Shown here in pieces: positions 1,688 through 13,032 of a stretch of 14,460 nt of DNA. Every line of letters begins with the position of its first letter. The first letter of the stretch is position 1. The notes beneath the pieces are model-generated. The model did no database searches, was not told the DNA's origin, and worked only from the letters and a program-made list of their open reading frames with translations. The DNA comes from a virus (lineage: Duplodnaviria; Heunggongvirae; Uroviricota; Caudoviricetes): positions 1 through 14,460 of IMG/VR virus record IMGVR_UViG_2645727821_000004; one strand, 5' to 3'. Both the position numbers and the translations under genes were made by a program.

Positions 1688-1840
1688 TCAGTCAGAGTTT
1701 CTTGCTAACCAGCGATGCGCGCCAGCTTCGGTTTTAAACGTTTTACTTTTGGTATACGTCATCGCGGTGAACGTGCCGTCCTGGTTGGGAAACACGCCGT
1801 ACACCAGAGATTCGTTGTTGCCAAGATCGATAGTATCCAT
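1688..1840 (-). CDS. small protein (50 aa), first gene of leftward operon; YdfA-like by position
   Basis: Track ORF 1688..1921. Internal ATG at 1840-1838 has an AGG-N5 SD and gives MDTIDLGNNESLVYGVFPNQDGTFTAMTYTKSKTFKTEAGAHRWLARNSD, matching the expected ~51-aa YdfA size. The 77-aa start at 1921 also has a GAGG SD and cannot be excluded. Confidence 0.5.
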   Translation of the reverse strand: MDTIDLGNNESLVYGVFPNQDGTFTAMTYTKSKTFKTEAGAHRWLARNSD

Positions 1841-2022
1841 GCTGACCTCATTTCCCCTTAACGCCGGGGTAGCGGAACAAAAACCTGCTGCATAGTTATT
1901 AAAGTTGAACCCTGCCGTCATGTTCTTACGCCTCGGGCTGGCTACTTAACCCCTGACCACTGCCTGGTAACTCGAAGTATTGCCCTGCGTTCTGTGGGGC
2001 GGGGTGGGTTGGCATGAAAGGA

Positions 2023-2063
2023 AGGATACCCATGGGTATTTAAAAAGTAAATACCCATGGGTA
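2023..2063 (-). promoter_or_regulatory. Leftward early promoter candidate (PL/PdicB-like) with two identical 12-bp palindromic operators
   Basis: Perfect palindrome TACCCATGGGTA at 2027-2038 and 2052-2063 (25-bp centre spacing). Minus-strand -35 TTTACT (plus 2046-2051) and -10 TATCCT (plus 2023-2028) with 17-bp spacer; the -10 overlaps operator 1. Confidence 0.5.
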
Positions 2064-2107
2064 ATTTTTTTTGATGTATCTTAACCGGTGACTGATTGTT
2101 TGGTGAG

Positions 2108-2527
2108 TTATGATGCGTTTTGTGCTTTCTTTTTACGGATTTCTTCGTAGATCATATTGTAATACTGTTTTTTCTCTTCAAGAGTTTTTAATAAGTTATC
2201 CGCTTCACTTTCTGGTAGTTCGTCTAAGAGATCTAAAAAAATACGTTGTCGTGGCGTTAGAACCCTTGTTTCATAATTGGAGGCTGTGTTCGTTGATGAT
2301 GAAACGATACCATCCATCCATCCCCGAGGTAACCCAAAGGACTCTTCTATAATCTCCACCATATCATCTGCGATCCGTTTTTTTCCTTTTTTCCCCTCTG
2401 GGTACAACATTCTTGATACATAAGAAGGCTCGCGACCGATCTTTCTGGCCACGTTAACCGCTTTACCATCGCATTTCTCATCACGAATTTTGATGAGTTG
2501 TTGTCGTCTAAATTCATATTTGTCCAT
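2108..2527 (-). CDS. Prophage immunity repressor, HTH, DicA/RacR-like; no S24 peptidase domain
   Basis: Track ORF 2108..2569 (TTG start would read through the operators); ATG at 2527-2525 preferred, 139 aa. HTH-like AVNVARKIGREPSYVSRML. C-terminus with LPESEADNLL resembles recalled DicA (ALPESEQD). Divergent from the cro-like gene across an operator-rich 100-bp region. Confidence 0.7.
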   Translation of the reverse strand: MDKYEFRRQQLIKIRDEKCDGKAVNVARKIGREPSYVSRMLYPEGKKGKKRIADDMVEIIEESFGLPRGWMDGIVSSSTNTASNYETRVLTPRQRIFLDLLDELPESEADNLLKTLEEKKQYYNMIYEEIRKKKAQNAS

Positions 2528-2548
2528 AGGTAAATAATAGATGCGATT

Positions 2549-2603
2549 ACCGCAAGGTAAACAACCCAAGGGTATTGACTTTTGTTTACCCGCAGGTATT
2601 CTT
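2549..2603 (+). promoter_or_regulatory. Rightward early promoter (PR-like) with three operator 12-mers (OR1-3 analogues)
   Basis: TACC-N4-GGTA 12-mers at 2549-2560, 2563-2574 and 2587-2598. -35 TTGACT at 2575-2580, -10 TATTCT at 2597-2602 (16-bp spacer). AAGGAG SD at 2617-2622 precedes the cro-like ATG at 2628. Confidence 0.55.
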
Positions 2604-2627
2604 TGCTGTGTTTACTAAGGAGTAGCT

Positions 2628-2909
2628 ATGGAAGAATTAAGAATATTTCTCAATTCTCTTTCGTCAGATGAACAGCGTATGTTTGCATGTGAGTGTGGTA
2701 CTAGCATCGGTTATCTAAGAAAGGCATTGAGTAAAGGTCAAGTGTTAGGGGCATCGTTATGTGTCCTTATTGAGCGAGCCAGTAATGGTGAAGTTACACG
2801 TCAGCAACTAAGGCCTTTTGATTGGATGAATATTTGGCCTGAGCTGGAAGATACCAAAACGTTAACACAACCACTTTCTAGGAGCTTGATTCATGAAAAT
2901 CAGGCATGA
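2628..2909 (+). CDS. Cro-like HTH regulator (YdaS/DicC-type)
   Basis: 93 aa with strong SD; HTH-like CECGTSIGYLRKALSKG; a ...QLRPFDW motif resembles recalled YdaS. First gene rightward of the operators. Confidence 0.65.
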   Translation: MEELRIFLNSLSSDEQRMFACECGTSIGYLRKALSKGQVLGASLCVLIERASNGEVTRQQLRPFDWMNIWPELEDTKTLTQPLSRSLIHENQA

Positions 2910-3318
2910 ACACATCCGCATGGCGATGAATGCATGGGCGCGTCCTGATGGTGAAAAAGTTCCTGCGGCTGAGATAACCAGGGCGTATTTCGAACTGGGT
3001 ATGACGTTCCCGGAACTGTACGACGACAGCCACCCAGAAGCCCTGGCGCGTAATACCCAGAAAATTTTCCGCTGGGTAGAGAAAGACACCCCTGATGCAG
3101 TTGAAAAAATTCAGGCGTTGTTACCGGCGATCGAAAAGGCAATGCCGCCTCTGCTGGTGGCCAGAATGCGCAGCCACAGTTCAGCTTATTTTCGGGAGCT
3201 GGTGGAGATGCGGGAACGACTGGTGAGAGACGCTGATGATTTTGTCGCGGTGGCAATAGCTGGCTTCAACCAGATCAACCGTGGTGGCCCGGCCGGAAAT
3301 GCTGTGGCTGTGCATTGA
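2893..3318 (+). CDS. YdaT-like protein (CII functional analogue / toxic regulator family)
   Basis: 141 aa; AGGAG SD at 2880-2884. Starts MKIRHEHI and ends ...VH, with KIQALLPAI motif, as in recalled Rac YdaT. Overlaps the cro-like gene by 17 nt. Confidence 0.65.
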   Translation: MKIRHEHIRMAMNAWARPDGEKVPAAEITRAYFELGMTFPELYDDSHPEALARNTQKIFRWVEKDTPDAVEKIQALLPAIEKAMPPLLVARMRSHSSAYFRELVEMRERLVRDADDFVAVAIAGFNQINRGGPAGNAVAVH

Positions 3319-3389: not shown

Positions 3390-4460
3390 ATGGCTAATGC
3401 CTGGCTCAGATTATGGCATGACATGCCAAATGACCCCAAGTGGCGAACCATTGCCCGGGTGTCAGGTCAGCCAATTGCAACAGTGATGGCTGTGTATATC
3501 CACCTCCTGGTGAGCGCGTCACGAAATGTCACGCGAGGTCACGTTGATGTCACGACCGAGGATTTGGCAAGCGCGCTCGATGTGACAGAAGAGGTGATTG
3601 ATTCAATTTTGCAGGCAATGCAGGGGCGGGTTCTGAAGGGGGATCTTATCACCGGATGGGAAAAACGCCAGGTACTGAAGGAGGATAACGGTAACGTTTC
3701 GCCAACCGCAAAATCCCCGGCAGAGCGCAAGAGAGCGCAGCGGGAGAGGGAAAGGCAGCGGGAGCAAAATGGCGACTGTCACGGCGTGTCACGAAATGTC
3801 ACGCACATGTCACGACGAGTCACGACAGATAAAGATACAGATAAAGATACAGATCAAGAAGATCAAAACACTATGGTTCATGGCGAGAAAAACGCCACGA
3901 ACCTGACAGGGGATGTTCAGACCGTCAATCCTGGTCAGCCGGCAGGCACGACACCGGAAGCCGATTCAGCGTATGCGCTGAAAGCCGATTCGGGCGCTGT
4001 GCAGCAGGCGATGGTCGCCGGACCGGAGAGATCACACCAACCGCAGCAGCCTGAAGCCGATTCCGCCCTTCAGCGGGAAGCCGATCGGGTAGTCCCGGAA
4101 AACACCGGGCAGCCTGTGGGACGAGTGGATTACCCGGACGGGTTCGAACAGGTCTGGCGGGAATATCCGCTGCGTGCCGGGGCAAATCCGAAGAAATCCG
4201 CGTTCAGTGCCTGGAAGGCCAGGTTACGCGAGGGGGTGCCACCGCAGGTCATGCTGGATGGTGTGAGGCGTTACGCGAGGTACCTGGCGGCGACCGGGAA
4301 AGCGGGAACGGAATTTGTTCAGCGGGCGACAACGTTTTTTGGACCTGACCGGAATTTTGAAAACCCCTGGTTGCTCCCGACTGGCGGGACGAACAACCAG
4401 CGTTGTGTGAATCATATTTCCGAACCGGATACCGAAATTCCACCAGGTTTCAGGGGGTGA
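3390..4460 (+). CDS. Replication initiator (lambda O-like / YdaU-like) containing an internal origin
   Basis: 356 aa; GAAGAGG SD. Lies immediately upstream of the DnaC-like gene; iteron arrays and an AT-rich tract inside the coding sequence (next two features) parallel lambda ori within O. Confidence 0.7.
   Translation: MANAWLRLWHDMPNDPKWRTIARVSGQPIATVMAVYIHLLVSASRNVTRGHVDVTTEDLASALDVTEEVIDSILQAMQGRVLKGDLITGWEKRQVLKEDNGNVSPTAKSPAERKRAQRERERQREQNGDCHGVSRNVTHMSRRVTTDKDTDKDTDQEDQNTMVHGEKNATNLTGDVQTVNPGQPAGTTPEADSAYALKADSGAVQQAMVAGPERSHQPQQPEADSALQREADRVVPENTGQPVGRVDYPDGFEQVWREYPLRAGANPKKSAFSAWKARLREGVPPQVMLDGVRRYARYLAATGKAGTEFVQRATTFFGPDRNFENPWLLPTGGTNNQRCVNHISEPDTEIPPGFRG
3518..3554. repeat. 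Iteron array 1: four GTCACG repeats at 10-11 bp periodicity
   Basis: GTCACG at 3518, 3528, 3538 and 3549, read directly from the sequence. Confidence 0.7.
3778..3866. repeat. Iteron array 2 (five GTCACG repeats) plus adjacent AT-rich tandem repeats with two GATC sites; putative replication origin
   Basis: GTCACG at 3778, 3788, 3798, 3809 and 3819. Tandem AGATAAAGATAC at 3827-3838 and 3839-3850. GATC at 3852-3855 and 3861-3864. Confidence 0.65.
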
Positions 4461-4466
4461 AGGATT

Positions 4467-5213
4467 ATGAAAAATATAGCGACAGGAGGCGTTCTTGAAC
4501 GTATCCGCAAGCTGGCACCACAGCATGTAACCGCGCCGTACCGGACGGCAGAAGAGTGGCGTGAGTGGCAACTTGCGGAAGGCCAGAAACGTTGCGAGGA
4601 GATCAACCGTCAGAATCGTCAGTTGCGGGTGGAAAAAATTCTGAATCGCTCCGGTATCCAGCCGTTGCACCGCAAATGTTCGTTTGCGAATTACCGGGTG
4701 CAGAACGACGGCCAGCGATATGCGCTGAGCCAGGCAAAATCCATCGCGGACGTACTGATAACCGGATGCACAAATTTCGTGTTCAGCGGTAAGCCGGGTA
4801 CCGGAAAAAATCACCTGGCAGCCGCCATTGGTAATCATCTTCTGGAGAAAGGTCGCAGCGTGATTGTGGTCACGGTGGCTGATGTGATGCTGGCGCTACA
4901 CGGCAGCTACGACAACAAAAACTCAGGCGAAAAATTTTTGCAGGGTTTGTGTGACGTTGACCTGCTGGTTCTGGATGAGATTGGCATGCAGCGTGATACG
5001 CGCAACGAACAGGTCACACTGAACCAGATCGTCGATCGCAGAACAGCCGCGATGCGCAGTGTCGGGCTGCTGACGAACCTGAACCATACCGCAATGAGCA
5101 CCCTGCTTGGCTGGCGCGTGATGGACCGCATGACCATGAACGGTGGGCGCTGGGTGAATTTTAACTGGGAGAGCTGGCGTCCGAATGTCGGTCAGCCAGG
5201 AATTGAAAAGTAA
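4467..5213 (+). CDS. DnaC-like AAA+ helicase loader (phage replication protein P analogue, YdaV-like)
   Basis: 248 aa. Walker A GKPGTGKNHLA and Walker B LLVLDEIG. Start 7 nt after the initiator stop, with GGTGAAGGA SD. Confidence 0.85.
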   Translation: MKNIATGGVLERIRKLAPQHVTAPYRTAEEWREWQLAEGQKRCEEINRQNRQLRVEKILNRSGIQPLHRKCSFANYRVQNDGQRYALSQAKSIADVLITGCTNFVFSGKPGTGKNHLAAAIGNHLLEKGRSVIVVTVADVMLALHGSYDNKNSGEKFLQGLCDVDLLVLDEIGMQRDTRNEQVTLNQIVDRRTAAMRSVGLLTNLNHTAMSTLLGWRVMDRMTMNGGRWVNFNWESWRPNVGQPGIEK

Positions 5214-10170: not shown

Positions 10171-11217
10171 GTGCGGGTATTACTTCGACCTGTTCTGATA
10201 CCGGAACTCGGGCTGGTGGTCCTTAAGCCCGGTCGTGAATCCATGCCGGTATTTCACAATCCTCGAGTGCTGGTGGAGCCGGAACCGAAAAGTATGTGCG
10301 GCCTGCCATCCGGAGTCGTCCCTGCCGTTCGCCAGCCGCTGGCGGAGGATAAATCATTACTGCCATTTTTCAGCGATGATCGGGTGATTCGTGCTGTTGG
10401 CGGCGCTGGGGCACTGTCTGACTGGCTGTTGCGTCATGTCAAATCCTGCCAGTGGCCTCATGGTGACTATCATCACAGTGAAATCGTCATACATCGTTAC
10501 GGTACCGGCGCGATGGTGTTGTGCTGGCACTGCGACAACCAGCTGCGTGACCAGACATCCGAATCACTCGAGCAACTTGCTCATCAAAACCTGTCAGCAT
10601 GGATGATTGACGTCATCGGTCACGCAATAAGCGGTACGCAGGAGCGTGAATTATCTCTGGCTGAATTATCCTGGTGGGCGGTCCGCAATCAGGTGGCGGA
10701 CGCGCTACCGGAAGCGGTATTACGTCGTTCGCTGGGGTTGCGTGCGGAAAAAATCCGCTCAATGTACCGTGAAAGCGACATCGTACCGGGAGAGCAGACC
10801 GCCACCAGCATACTGAAGCAGCGCACAAAAAATCTTGCGCCGCTGCCTCACGCCCACCAGCAAAACCCGCCACAGGAAGAGGCGGTGGTCAGCATTGCCG
10901 TTGATCCGGAGTCTCCGGAATCTTTCATGAGACGACCTAAACGTCGCCGTTGGGTAAAGGAGAAATATACGCGCTGGGTGAAGACACAGCCGTGTGCGTG
11001 TTGTGGTCAACCAGCCGACGATCCCCATCACCTGATTGGTCACGGTCAGGGAGGGATGGGAACAAAGGCCCACGATATTTTCACGCTACCGTTGTGCCGG
11101 GAACATCACAACGAACTTCATGCGGATCCGCTGGCGTTCGAAGAAAAGCATGGCTCTCAGGTTGATTTAATTTTTCGTTTTCTTGATCACGCCTTTGCAA
11201 CCGGCGTGCTTGGGTAA
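10171..11217 (+). CDS. YdfU-like DUF968 protein (348 aa) with HNH-like C-terminal Cys/His cluster
   Basis: GTG start 1 nt after the upstream stop; GGAGG 5 nt upstream. C-terminal CACCGQPADDPHHLIGHGQGG ... CREHHNELH. Length matches recalled YdfU (~349 aa). Confidence 0.7.
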   Translation: MRVLLRPVLIPELGLVVLKPGRESMPVFHNPRVLVEPEPKSMCGLPSGVVPAVRQPLAEDKSLLPFFSDDRVIRAVGGAGALSDWLLRHVKSCQWPHGDYHHSEIVIHRYGTGAMVLCWHCDNQLRDQTSESLEQLAHQNLSAWMIDVIGHAISGTQERELSLAELSWWAVRNQVADALPEAVLRRSLGLRAEKIRSMYRESDIVPGEQTATSILKQRTKNLAPLPHAHQQNPPQEEAVVSIAVDPESPESFMRRPKRRRWVKEKYTRWVKTQPCACCGQPADDPHHLIGHGQGGMGTKAHDIFTLPLCREHHNELHADPLAFEEKHGSQVDLIFRFLDHAFATGVLG

Positions 11218-11229
11218 AAGAGGTTACTG

Positions 11230-11592
11230 ATGCGTATAGAGCTTGTTTTGCCTTACCCGCCAACGGTGAACACCTACTGGCGACGTCGTGGCAGCACATA
11301 TTTTGTATCAAAAGCCGGTGAGCGTTATCGCCGGGATGTGGCGCTTATTGTTCGTCAGCAGCGACTGAAATTAAATCTGTCCGGTAGGCTGGCAATCCGA
11401 ATTATTGCAGAGCCACCGGATAAACGCCGCCGTGACCTGGACAATATCCTGAAAGCACCACTGGATGCGCTGATGCATGCCGGACTTCTCATAGACGACG
11501 AGCAGTTTGATGAAATTAATATAGTGCGCGGTCAGCCTGTTCCTGGTGGGCGGCTGGGCGTGAAGATTTACGAAATAATGCATGACGGGTAG
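11230..11592 (+). CDS. rusA: RusA Holliday-junction resolvase
   Basis: 120 aa. PYPPTVNTYWRRR ... DKRRRDLDNILKAPLDAL ... GGRLGVKIYEI aligns to the RusA family including the catalytic acidic cluster. AAGAGG SD. Confidence 0.85.
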   Translation: MRIELVLPYPPTVNTYWRRRGSTYFVSKAGERYRRDVALIVRQQRLKLNLSGRLAIRIIAEPPDKRRRDLDNILKAPLDALMHAGLLIDDEQFDEINIVRGQPVPGGRLGVKIYEIMHDG

Positions 11593-11600
11593 GTCCAAAA

Positions 11601-12422
11601 ATGAAACTGGAAGATTTACCGAAATACTATTCCCCAAAATCGCCAGGTCTGACTGATGCATCCGTCTCGACGTCAAAAGATGTGCTGAGCATCACTGATG
11701 TGATGGCTGCGCAGGGTATGACACAAAACCGGGCTGAGATGGGATTTTCTGCGTTCCTGGGGAAAATGGGCATCAGTATGAATGACAGGGCGCGGGCAAC
11801 AGAATTACTGGCAGATTATGCACTCAGTCGGTGCGATCGCGTGGCGGCGTTGAGAAAACTTCCGGCAGAAATAAAACCGGCAGTGATGCGTATTATGGCT
11901 TCGTACGCTTTTGAGGATTATGCCCGCAGTGCAGCGAGTAAAAAACAGTGCCCTTGTTGCGGTGGGAAAAAATTTATTGAAAGCGTAGTTTTTACAAACA
12001 AGGTCCAGTATCCGGATGGCAAGCCGCCAGTATGGGCAAAGTGTACAAAAGGCGTGTATCCGTCTTACTGGGAGGAATGGAAAAAAGTCCGGGAGGTGGT
12101 GAAAGTCTCCTGTCCAGAATGCAAAGGGAAAGGGGAGGTTTCTACGGCCTGTAAAGATTGCCGTGGACGTGGTGTTGCCATTCATCGTGAAGAGTCGGAA
12201 AAACGGGGTATGCCTGTTATCAGAGACTGCCAGCGTTGTGGTGGTCGTGGCTATGAAAGATTACCGTCGACGGAGGCATTTAATGCCATATGTGAGGTAA
12301 CAAAGCAGATAACACGCGCGTCATGGGAAAAAACTGTTAAGCAATTCTATGACACGCTGGTGATTAAGTTTGATATTGAGGAAGCATGGGCAGAGCGGCA
12401 GTTAAAAAAGGTAACCAGATAA
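11601..12422 (+). CDS. putative late-gene antiterminator Q (QuuQ/phage-82-like), with four CxxCxGxG zinc-finger-like motifs
   Basis: 273 aa. Position between rusA and a promoter/terminator pair is the Q slot. Motifs CPCCGGKK, CPECKGKG, CKDCRGRG, CQRCGGRG. Call is by position and zinc-binding character. Confidence 0.55.
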   Translation: MKLEDLPKYYSPKSPGLTDASVSTSKDVLSITDVMAAQGMTQNRAEMGFSAFLGKMGISMNDRARATELLADYALSRCDRVAALRKLPAEIKPAVMRIMASYAFEDYARSAASKKQCPCCGGKKFIESVVFTNKVQYPDGKPPVWAKCTKGVYPSYWEEWKKVREVVKVSCPECKGKGEVSTACKDCRGRGVAIHREESEKRGMPVIRDCQRCGGRGYERLPSTEAFNAICEVTKQITRASWEKTVKQFYDTLVIKFDIEEAWAERQLKKVTR

Positions 12423-12526: not shown

Positions 12527-12630
12527 GTTGGTTTAACAGGTTATAATGTATAGTGCGAAACTGCCTGTTCAGCAGAATCATTTTGTTTGTAGTAGAGTTC
12601 ACAAGTCGTCATTATCAGGCAAAGAGATTT

Positions 12631-13032
12631 ATGGTATTAAAGTATCAGCCGTCTGTTCGTTCTGTTTTAATGTGTGATTTTCGGGGAATGGTTGTTCCGG
12701 AAATAGTCAAGGCCAGGCCAGTGGTAGTAGTATCCAGAAACAGACACAACAATCAATTGGTAACAGTGGTACCAATAAGCACTACTGAACCGATCCCTCG
12801 CAGAGATTGCCATCATGAGTTATCAGAAAACCCCATTCCTGGTAATGAGCATATTACTTGCTGGGTAAAATGTGACATGTTGATGACGGTTTCATTGAGC
12901 CGACTGGATCGCATAAAAACCAGAAACTGGGAGGGGCGAAATTATATTGTTCCTATGATTGCGGAAGATGAGTTTGAGAATATTAAACGGGCGGTATTGC
13001 ACGGGATAGGGATGGCTTATCTGTATCGATAA
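12631..13032 (+). CDS. MazF/PemK-fold toxin-like protein (133 aa) with no adjacent antitoxin ORF
   Basis: By-eye parallel to MazF: CDFRG ... E..KARPVVVVSRNRHNNQLVTVVPISTT vs MazF VDFDP ... RPAVVLSPFMYNNKTGMCLCVPCTT; C-terminal ...IKRAVLHGIG vs ...KINVLIG. Perfect TATAAT at 12542-12547 upstream. Confidence 0.6.
   Translation: MVLKYQPSVRSVLMCDFRGMVVPEIVKARPVVVVSRNRHNNQLVTVVPISTTEPIPRRDCHHELSENPIPGNEHITCWVKCDMLMTVSLSRLDRIKTRNWEGRNYIVPMIAEDEFENIKRAVLHGIGMAYLYR

Follow-up and report, generated by a model that had tools for sequence, protein, structure and literature searches.

Five copies of a TACC-N4-GGTA palindrome flank a 139-aa repressor gene in a lambdoid prophage of E. coli type, where they very probably serve as the operators of a bistable switch like that of lambda. 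We base this reading on sequence comparison: the DNA-binding domain of the repressor recurred in dozens of distantly related bacteria, accompanied there by the same layout of three plus two sites. The window (the whole 14,460-bp stretch of DNA analysed) represents the early region of the prophage, and all five copies lie within positions 2023-2603. A 1-kb region here was 98% identical to prophages of E. coli, Shiga-toxin-producing strains among them, and 822 of 5426 complete E. coli genomes carried 80% of it or more. When the region was compared with the phage collection by megablast, matches were confined to its flanks and, in phage Tritos, to the part of the repressor gene that encodes the C-terminus, and no phage carried the whole immunity region.

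Probable operator sites and predicted promoters

Exact TACC-N4-GGTA matches occurred four times in the window (at 2027, 2052, 2548, and 2587), against 0.08 expected, and none of 200 shuffles of the window gave four or more. A one-mismatch search added a fifth copy at 2563-2574, with one mismatch in an arm, together with six further matches that were scattered over the window at a number near chance (2.75 expected). These counts agree with the initial annotation, which had reported five copies in this interval and two identical perfect palindromes at a leftward promoter; both left sites read TACCCATGGGTA (Table 1). It had also described all three right-hand copies as degenerate. This holds for the middle site (OR2), the only one with a broken arm, but not for the other two: their arms are perfect, and a non-palindromic central 4 bp is all that sets them apart from the left sites. 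An overlap of OR2 with the -35 hexamer of the rightward promoter, also proposed there, was not found: the site adjoins the hexamer, and its end is the exact start of the pR -35. Centre-to-centre spacings were 24 bp for OR1-OR2, 15 bp for OR2-OR3, and 25 bp for OL1-OL2.

Table 1. Features of the immunity region and neighbouring genes, in window coordinates. Promoters are predictions.
Feature	Position	Strand	Sequence	Description
DUF1391 ORF	1688..1921	-		First ORF downstream of pL; PF07151, E 1.2e-28; shorter DUF1391 CDS in RefSeq here
Predicted pL	2023..2051	-	-35 TTTACT (2051..2046); -10 TATCCT (2028..2023)	17-nt spacer; read from sequence
OL1	2027..2038		TACCCATGGGTA	Exact match; covers pL spacer and first two -10 bases (read leftward)
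OL2	2052..2063		TACCCATGGGTA	Exact match; directly adjoins pL -35
Repressor gene	2108..2527	-		139 aa; phrog_5736 'transcriptional regulator', E 4.7e-70; RefSeq 'hypothetical protein'
Predicted pRM	2534..2561	-	-35 TTTACC (2561..2556); -10 TATTAT (2539..2534)	16-nt spacer; promoter scan 9/12
OR3	2548..2559		TACCGCAAGGTA	Exact arms; over predicted pRM -35 and spacer; centre ~-26.5 from repressor ATG
OR2	2563..2574		AACCCAAGGGTA (TACCCTTGGGTT in repressor orientation)	One mismatch; adjoins pR -35; centre ~-41.5
Predicted pR	2575..2602	+	-35 TTGACT (2575-2580); -10 TATTCT (2597-2602)	16-nt spacer; promoter scan 9/12
OR1	2587..2598		TACCCGCAGGTA	Exact match; covers pR spacer and first two -10 bases
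Cro-equivalent gene	2628..2909	+		YdaS-like helix-turn-helix protein, 93 aa; first pR-operon gene; PF15943 YdaS, E 9e-6; phrog_35
YdaT-family gene	2893..3318	+		CII equivalent; PF06254, E 6.7e-10, above cut-off; phrog_163 'CII-like'
Replication genes	3390-5213

The repressor gene and the Cro-like gene are divergent, and the 100-bp gap between them holds the three right-hand sites. The assignment of the Cro-like protein to PF15943 scored 25.8 bits, below the cut-off of 30. A scan for sigma-70 promoters, with a listing threshold of 9/12 consensus matches, returned pR and pRM, so that the operators lie over both predicted promoters, in a register kept in 35-39 loci of the comparison described below. 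The hexamers of pL are weak (8/12) and fall below this threshold, which explains its absence from the scan list. On the minus strand, its order is TACCCATGGGTA-TTTACT-TTTTAAA-TACCCATGGGTA-TCCT, and this predicted promoter is supported by its comparative register across 32 loci. One layout is common to pL and pR, in which a site is followed by the -35 and then by a 16/17-nt spacer containing a second site, whose final TA opens the -10.

The A of the repressor ATG (2527) lies 7 nt past the predicted pRM -10, and there is no Shine-Dalgarno sequence; the repressor mRNA is therefore predicted to be leaderless. The pRM -10 ended at -7 or -8 from the ATG in 28 of 37 loci and a Shine-Dalgarno sequence was lacking in 34 of 37, and this predicted leaderless geometry is kept family-wide. 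Relative to the predicted pRM start, the site centres are at about -65.5 (OR1), -41.5 (OR2), and -26.5 (OR3).

Conservation of the sites and alternative explanations

We compared 43 loci: 40 in genomes returned by a one-genome-per-species scan, one each in phages mEp043 and CharmingMan, and that of the window. The genome loci had 35-82% identity to the repressor domain and came from Yersinia, Edwardsiella, Klebsiella, Pantoea, Aeromonas, Neisseria, Paraburkholderia, Massilia, Xanthomonas, Stenotrophomonas, and others. Measured from the repressor ATG, OR1 was found at -71 to -75 in 39 of the 43 loci (at -85 in one locus), OR2 at -47 to -50 in 35, and OR3 at -32 to -35 in 35. The OL pair, 25-26 bp apart and downstream of the repressor gene, was present in 32. 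From the background rate of the window, about 0.06 matches would be expected by chance at any single offset over all loci. Both phages and most of the 40 genomes, all of which have the same repressor domain, thus keep the sites at near-equal offsets. Promoter hexamers stand in fixed register on both sides of the gene, which bears out, as a prediction, the earlier proposal that the operators flank the repressor in a two-way switch.

Each site had its own family pattern. OR1 followed tTTACC-YRYR-GGTAAa, always with a pyrimidine-purine-pyrimidine-purine (YRYR) centre. OR2 followed TCAA-TACC-YRYR-GG(T/G/C)(T/A/C)-ATTT, where TCAA is the complement of the pR -35; its arm toward OR3 was nearly always broken, on the same side in 35 loci (GGTT, GGGA or GGTC), and the TTGA complement next to it was kept in 33-34 of these 35. 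OR3 combined perfect arms with a non-YRYR centre, and OL1 and OL2 combined perfect arms with a YRYR centre. In relatives, TTGAnn or TAGACA came directly after OL2, and the OL1 equivalent was followed by TAnnnT as the -10, the final T of which was kept in all 32 loci.

In the two phages, the repressor N-terminal domain was 76% (mEp043) and 66% (CharmingMan) identical. In the mEp043 genome, three copies of the motif, spaced 25 and 15 bp apart, lie between cI and cro, and two more, 25 bp apart, coincide exactly with the putative PL annotated by its depositors. CharmingMan has the same 3+2 sites with the 25/15/25-bp spacings of mEp043. Our full-text literature search returned no experimental study of the operators of either phage and no binding measurements for the 139-aa repressor or a relative, and the papers that name mEp043 leave its operators untreated.

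Sites were absent from three loci in which the recognition helix was altered from SYVSR (L039/L043, ASISH/ATISH; L023, SYVNR). Furthermore, among 80 prophage copies whose repressors were 99-100% identical, variable positions amounted to 3 of 24 in the arms, 9 of 12 in the centres, and 8 of 45 in the other intergenic sequence. Taken together, the offset, helix, and variation comparisons identify the arms, at the level of sequence, as constrained elements that travel with this DNA-binding domain.

Alternatively, only the Cro-like (YdaS-type) protein or some other factor might bind the sites, and the 139-aa repressor might recognise something else. A Cro homologue, with a conserved CGTSIGYLRKA helix, lay divergent from the repressor alongside the sites in 36 of 43 loci, and since Cro is thus co-inherited with the sites too, co-occurrence by itself does not decide between it and the repressor as the protein that binds them. 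However, the Klebsiella-type loci L007 and L010-L012 have no Cro homologue and keep the repressor domain, and a site near -73 was present in all four. A site near -33 was found in L010-L012 (L007 has only a 2-mismatch copy), and the OL pair in three of the four. The loss of sites also tracks changes in the repressor recognition helix, no other repeated palindrome was evident between the divergent repressor and Cro-like genes, and the operators of characterised lambdoid switches are common to both proteins (PMC8630535). We therefore consider binding without the repressor highly unlikely.

The left pair (2027-2063) could also be read mainly as a bidirectional intrinsic terminator hairpin that ends the repressor transcript, rather than as an operator pair. 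It can fold on either strand into a 16-bp stem with a 5-nt loop (about -24 kcal/mol; z = -4.6 and -6.6), with T8 after it on the plus strand and TCCTTCCTTT on the minus strand, and the interval between the repressor stop codon (2108) and the pair contains no other terminator. Two copies of a palindrome, however, pair with each other automatically. In relatives, the OL centres usually differ and the length of the A-run varies, and mEp043 carries a distinct terminator upstream of the OL pair. Conservation at OL falls not on the stem but on the arms and on promoter hexamers whose register is fixed, and the last T of the -10 is invariant. We accordingly set aside a terminator alone as very improbable. 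An additional terminator role of the left pair in this particular prophage is conceivable, although we would not expect it. Finally, a chance cluster or generic repeat unrelated to regulation, which only the shortness of the motif favours, is refuted by the shuffles and by the retention of site positions across 40 genomes from several orders of Proteobacteria, and its probability is negligible.

Repressor architecture and comparison with known switches

The repressor comprises an N-terminal helix-turn-helix domain (aa 1-72), a disordered linker, and a C-terminal helical hairpin. A Pfam search of the 139-aa protein gave no match, HTH and Peptidase_S24 families included. In an AlphaFold model built from 20 relatives, residues 1-72 had pLDDT above 90 and formed four helices (3-18, 23-30, 34-40, and 54-63), followed by the linker (76-87) and the hairpin (92-138). 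The best fold match of the N-terminal domain was the corresponding domain of Rep in the Rep-Ant (repressor-antirepressor) complex of a Salmonella temperate phage (PDB 5d50_A; rmsd 1.6 A over 72 columns; 26% identity). Weaker matches were C.Esp1396I, lambda repressor 1lli, and the TP901-1 CI N-terminal domain. The Foldseek E-values were weak throughout (1e-3 or above), and a sequence-profile search of the domain also placed 5d50 at the top. As modelled, the N-terminal 72 residues are an XRE-type helix-turn-helix domain. The domain also matched PDB 7nkv/8c3l weakly (E 0.007-0.018); we tentatively take these entries to be PaaR2, the repressor of prophage CP-933P, and a weak relation between the N-terminal domains of both repressors rests on this assumption.

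The N-terminal ~72 residues were 64-85% identical to the N-termini of many LexA/S24-family CI repressors of 221-242 aa, to whose C-termini the C-terminus of the 139-aa repressor is unrelated. These relatives carry PF00717, which the 139-aa repressor lacks. Residues 84-136 matched the DicA model NF007257 with an E-value of 2.5e-5 and 24 bits, under the family cut-off of 101. Because this DicA-like C-terminal region is also 72% identical to the C-terminus of the Tritos 'CI repressor', whose N-terminus is different, the repressor as predicted is modular, with an operator-specific helix-turn-helix domain joined to a short, non-catalytic oligomerisation domain.

The predicted switch resembles that of lambda in its divergent repressor and cro genes, in three operators over pR and pRM with a second cluster at pL beyond the repressor, in the 24 bp between OR1 and OR2, and in the position of OR2 about 42 bp upstream of the pRM start. 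A leaderless repressor mRNA and graded site quality, both predicted here, are further likenesses. It differs from lambda in its 12-bp core TACC-YRYR-GGTA (16 bp with flanks) against 17-bp sites, in having two OL sites rather than three, and in an OR2-OR3 distance of 15 bp rather than 23. In addition, the repressor has no S24 self-cleavage domain and the CII equivalent belongs to the YdaT family.

Experiments have shown that the CP-933P switch of E. coli O157:H7, which consists of the short repressor PaaR2, YdaS, and YdaT, works in this way with different operators (PMC8630535). As is predicted for the present locus, the CP-933P repressor is short and non-cleavable and its gene leaderless, Cro is of the YdaS type and CII of the YdaT type (PMC8630535, PMC9986795), and operators lie at PR/PRM and PL; the paaR2 mRNA is leaderless in the manner of lambda cI (PMC8630535). 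The YdaT operator TTGATT-N6-AATCAA has been footprinted and lies at the ydaS-ydaT junction of CP-933P. A one-mismatch copy, TTGATTCATGAAAATCAG, occupies the same place here (2886-2903; 0.07 expected). By analogy, this points to the presence of a CII-like (establishment) arm in the present switch as well. Unlike those of the window, the CP-933P operators are GTTTAGTAA repeats, so they were ruled out as the same specificity and CP-933P represents a different immunity specificity. The paaA2-parE2 toxin-antitoxin pair of the CP-933P repressor operon is also absent here.

Phage 933W has three OR and two OL sites in the same arrangement (PMC3317979), and the CI of mEp043, which shares the DNA-binding domain of the window, is annotated as similar to 933W CI. 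However, the sites of 933W span 15 bp, with a central base pair as their axis of symmetry, and have another sequence (PMC3317979), which ruled them out as the same specificity, and the 933W repressor is S24-cleavable. Further likenesses are mEp043 (NC_019706) and CharmingMan, which share with the window the DNA-binding domain, the operator motif, the 3+2 layout with near-equal spacings, and a homologous Cro. They differ in that their repressors have S24 peptidase C-terminal domains, and mEp043 has lambda-type CII and N.

Short repressors of the Gifsy type are inactivated by antirepressors (PMC3121763). The repressor described here resembles Gifsy/DicA-type repressors in its size class (~136-139 aa), in having no cleavage motif, and perhaps in its C-terminal region, and Rep (PDB 5d50) is the closest solved fold to its N-terminal domain. 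A tblastn search with that domain gave no match to a Gifsy phage at E <= 1e-5. Unlike the Gifsy type, the 14.5-kb window, which spans part of the prophage only, contained neither a LexA box (CTGT-N8-ACAG) nor a recognisable antirepressor gene.

Proposed switch and its significance

In the switch that we infer from the sequence, including binding, order of occupancy, cooperativity, activation, and Cro targets, repressor dimers would read the TACC/GGTA arms with the recognition helix S35-Y-V-S-R39 and would probably sense the YRYR centre indirectly, via DNA shape. Repressor on OR1 and OR2 would block pR, and repressor on OL1 and OL2 would do the same to pL, since one site of each pair lies over the spacer and -10 and the other adjoins the -35. 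OR2, about 41.5 bp upstream of the predicted pRM start, is in the position of a class II activator, from which bound repressor could, like lambda CI, stimulate its own synthesis. OR3, which overlies the -35 and spacer of pRM, would turn pRM off at high repressor levels (negative autoregulation). The Cro-like YdaS-type protein probably uses the same sites, repressing pRM and later pR.

The family-wide site patterns fit the graded affinity proposed in the initial annotation, with OR1, OL1, and OL2 consensus-like and OR2 (arm) and OR3 (centre) predicted to be weaker, and OR2 may, as in lambda, fill cooperatively with help from OR1. With 15 bp instead of 23 between OR2 and OR3, however, cooperativity and simultaneous occupancy may depart from the lambda pattern. 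As the repressor has no S24 peptidase domain, induction cannot proceed by RecA-stimulated self-cleavage as in lambda; by analogy with Gifsy prophages, it is probably brought about by an antirepressor.

The centres were the most variable part of the control region among prophages with 99-100% identical repressors, while the OR1 and OL centres stayed YRYR. It is a speculative and rather unlikely idea that the immunity module is tuned through its operator centres and a dual-use OL. If so, centre variation could reflect rapid selection on switch thresholds, i.e. induction frequency or partial heteroimmunity between co-resident prophages, and the hairpin formed in this copy by the two identical OL sites with their extended flanks could make the ending of the repressor transcript depend on operator occupancy.

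Conceptually, this is an ordinary lambda-type switch and will not surprise a specialist. The operator sequence, as read here, differs from those of lambda, 933W, and CP-933P, and no description of the motif (TACCCATGGGTA, TACCNNNNGGTA) was found in our full-text literature search, whose coverage excludes most subscription-journal papers. The comparison provides the specific operator sequence TACC-YRYR-GGTA and a complete predicted promoter/operator map for an uncharacterised immunity type. This type occurs in about 15% of complete E. coli genomes, many of them Shiga-toxin-producing, and related forms extend from Enterobacterales to Neisseria, Burkholderiales, and Xanthomonas. Across the family, the same DNA-binding domain and operator set go with a self-cleaving S24 domain in some members and with a short DicA-like domain in others. 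With two types of C-terminal domain on one domain/operator set, the family constitutes a natural experiment on the exchange of induction mechanisms with constant wiring.

Centres of the predicted operators and the left pair

We compared the control regions of 80 near-identical E. coli prophage copies (L044-L123; repressor identity 99-100%). The most variable part was the 4-bp centres of the three predicted right-hand operators, OR1-OR3. Across the region equivalent to window 2527-2605, 9 of the 12 centre positions varied, compared with 3/24 in the operator arms and 8/45 elsewhere. Nearly all OR1 centre variants kept the pyrimidine-purine-pyrimidine-purine pattern (YRYR). Read on the + strand, the OR1 centre is CGCA in the window and CACA in most relatives, and that of OR2 is CAAG in the window, again with CACA in most relatives.

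The predicted left operators (window 2027-2063) are two identical copies with TTTA/TAAA flanks, followed by T8. Together with window 2064-2072, this arrangement resembles an intrinsic terminator working in both directions. The length of the A/T run differs among close relatives.

Translation starts and a candidate YdaT site

In most of the family (window 2527-2561, - strand; loci L002-L042), the repressor gene has its start codon 7-8 nt past the predicted pRM -10 element and no Shine-Dalgarno sequence, which points to a conserved, predicted leaderless repressor mRNA. Several betaproteobacterial loci (e.g. L029, L032, and L038) also have the start of the Cro-like gene 6-7 nt past the pR -10, suggesting that both genes may be leaderless there.

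At window 2886-2903, TTGATTCATGAAAATCAG differs by a single mismatch from the YdaT operator OM, TTGATT-N6-AATCAA (chance expectation 0.07), which was defined by footprinting in prophage CP-933P (PMC8630535, PMC9986795). Its location is equivalent to that of OM, where ydaS ends and ydaT starts, and the ydaT ATG (2893) falls within it. This is probably a YdaT site belonging to a pRE-like region.

Genes around the Q-type antiterminator gene
Feature	Position	Placement
DUF968	10171-11217	Upstream of Q-type antiterminator gene
RusA	11230-11592	Upstream of Q-type antiterminator gene
Q-type antiterminator gene	11601-12422	
PemK/MazF-like toxin ORF	12553-13032	Next after Q-type antiterminator gene

Repressor variants

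Four Klebsiella loci (L007, L010, L011, and L012) show a variant architecture and encode S24-type repressors of 242 aa. They carry operator-like sites near -73 and near -33 from the repressor ATG, the latter with 2 mismatches in L007, and 3/4 have the left operator pair. These four loci lack OR2, an adjoining TTGA, and a detectable Cro homologue.

Some E. coli database proteins of 135-136 aa (P0013 and similar) start with the translation of an out-of-frame ORF within the repressor gene (window 2347-2517, - strand), resuming the normal frame at KKRIADD. These look like frameshifted, i.e. inactivated, repressor alleles.

The C-terminus of the window repressor is short and helical, resembling those of DicA and phage Tritos CI (72% identity to the latter), whereas the N-terminus of Tritos CI is different. 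[quoted passage not shown] By these sequence comparisons, the repressor (window 2108-2527, - strand) is modular.
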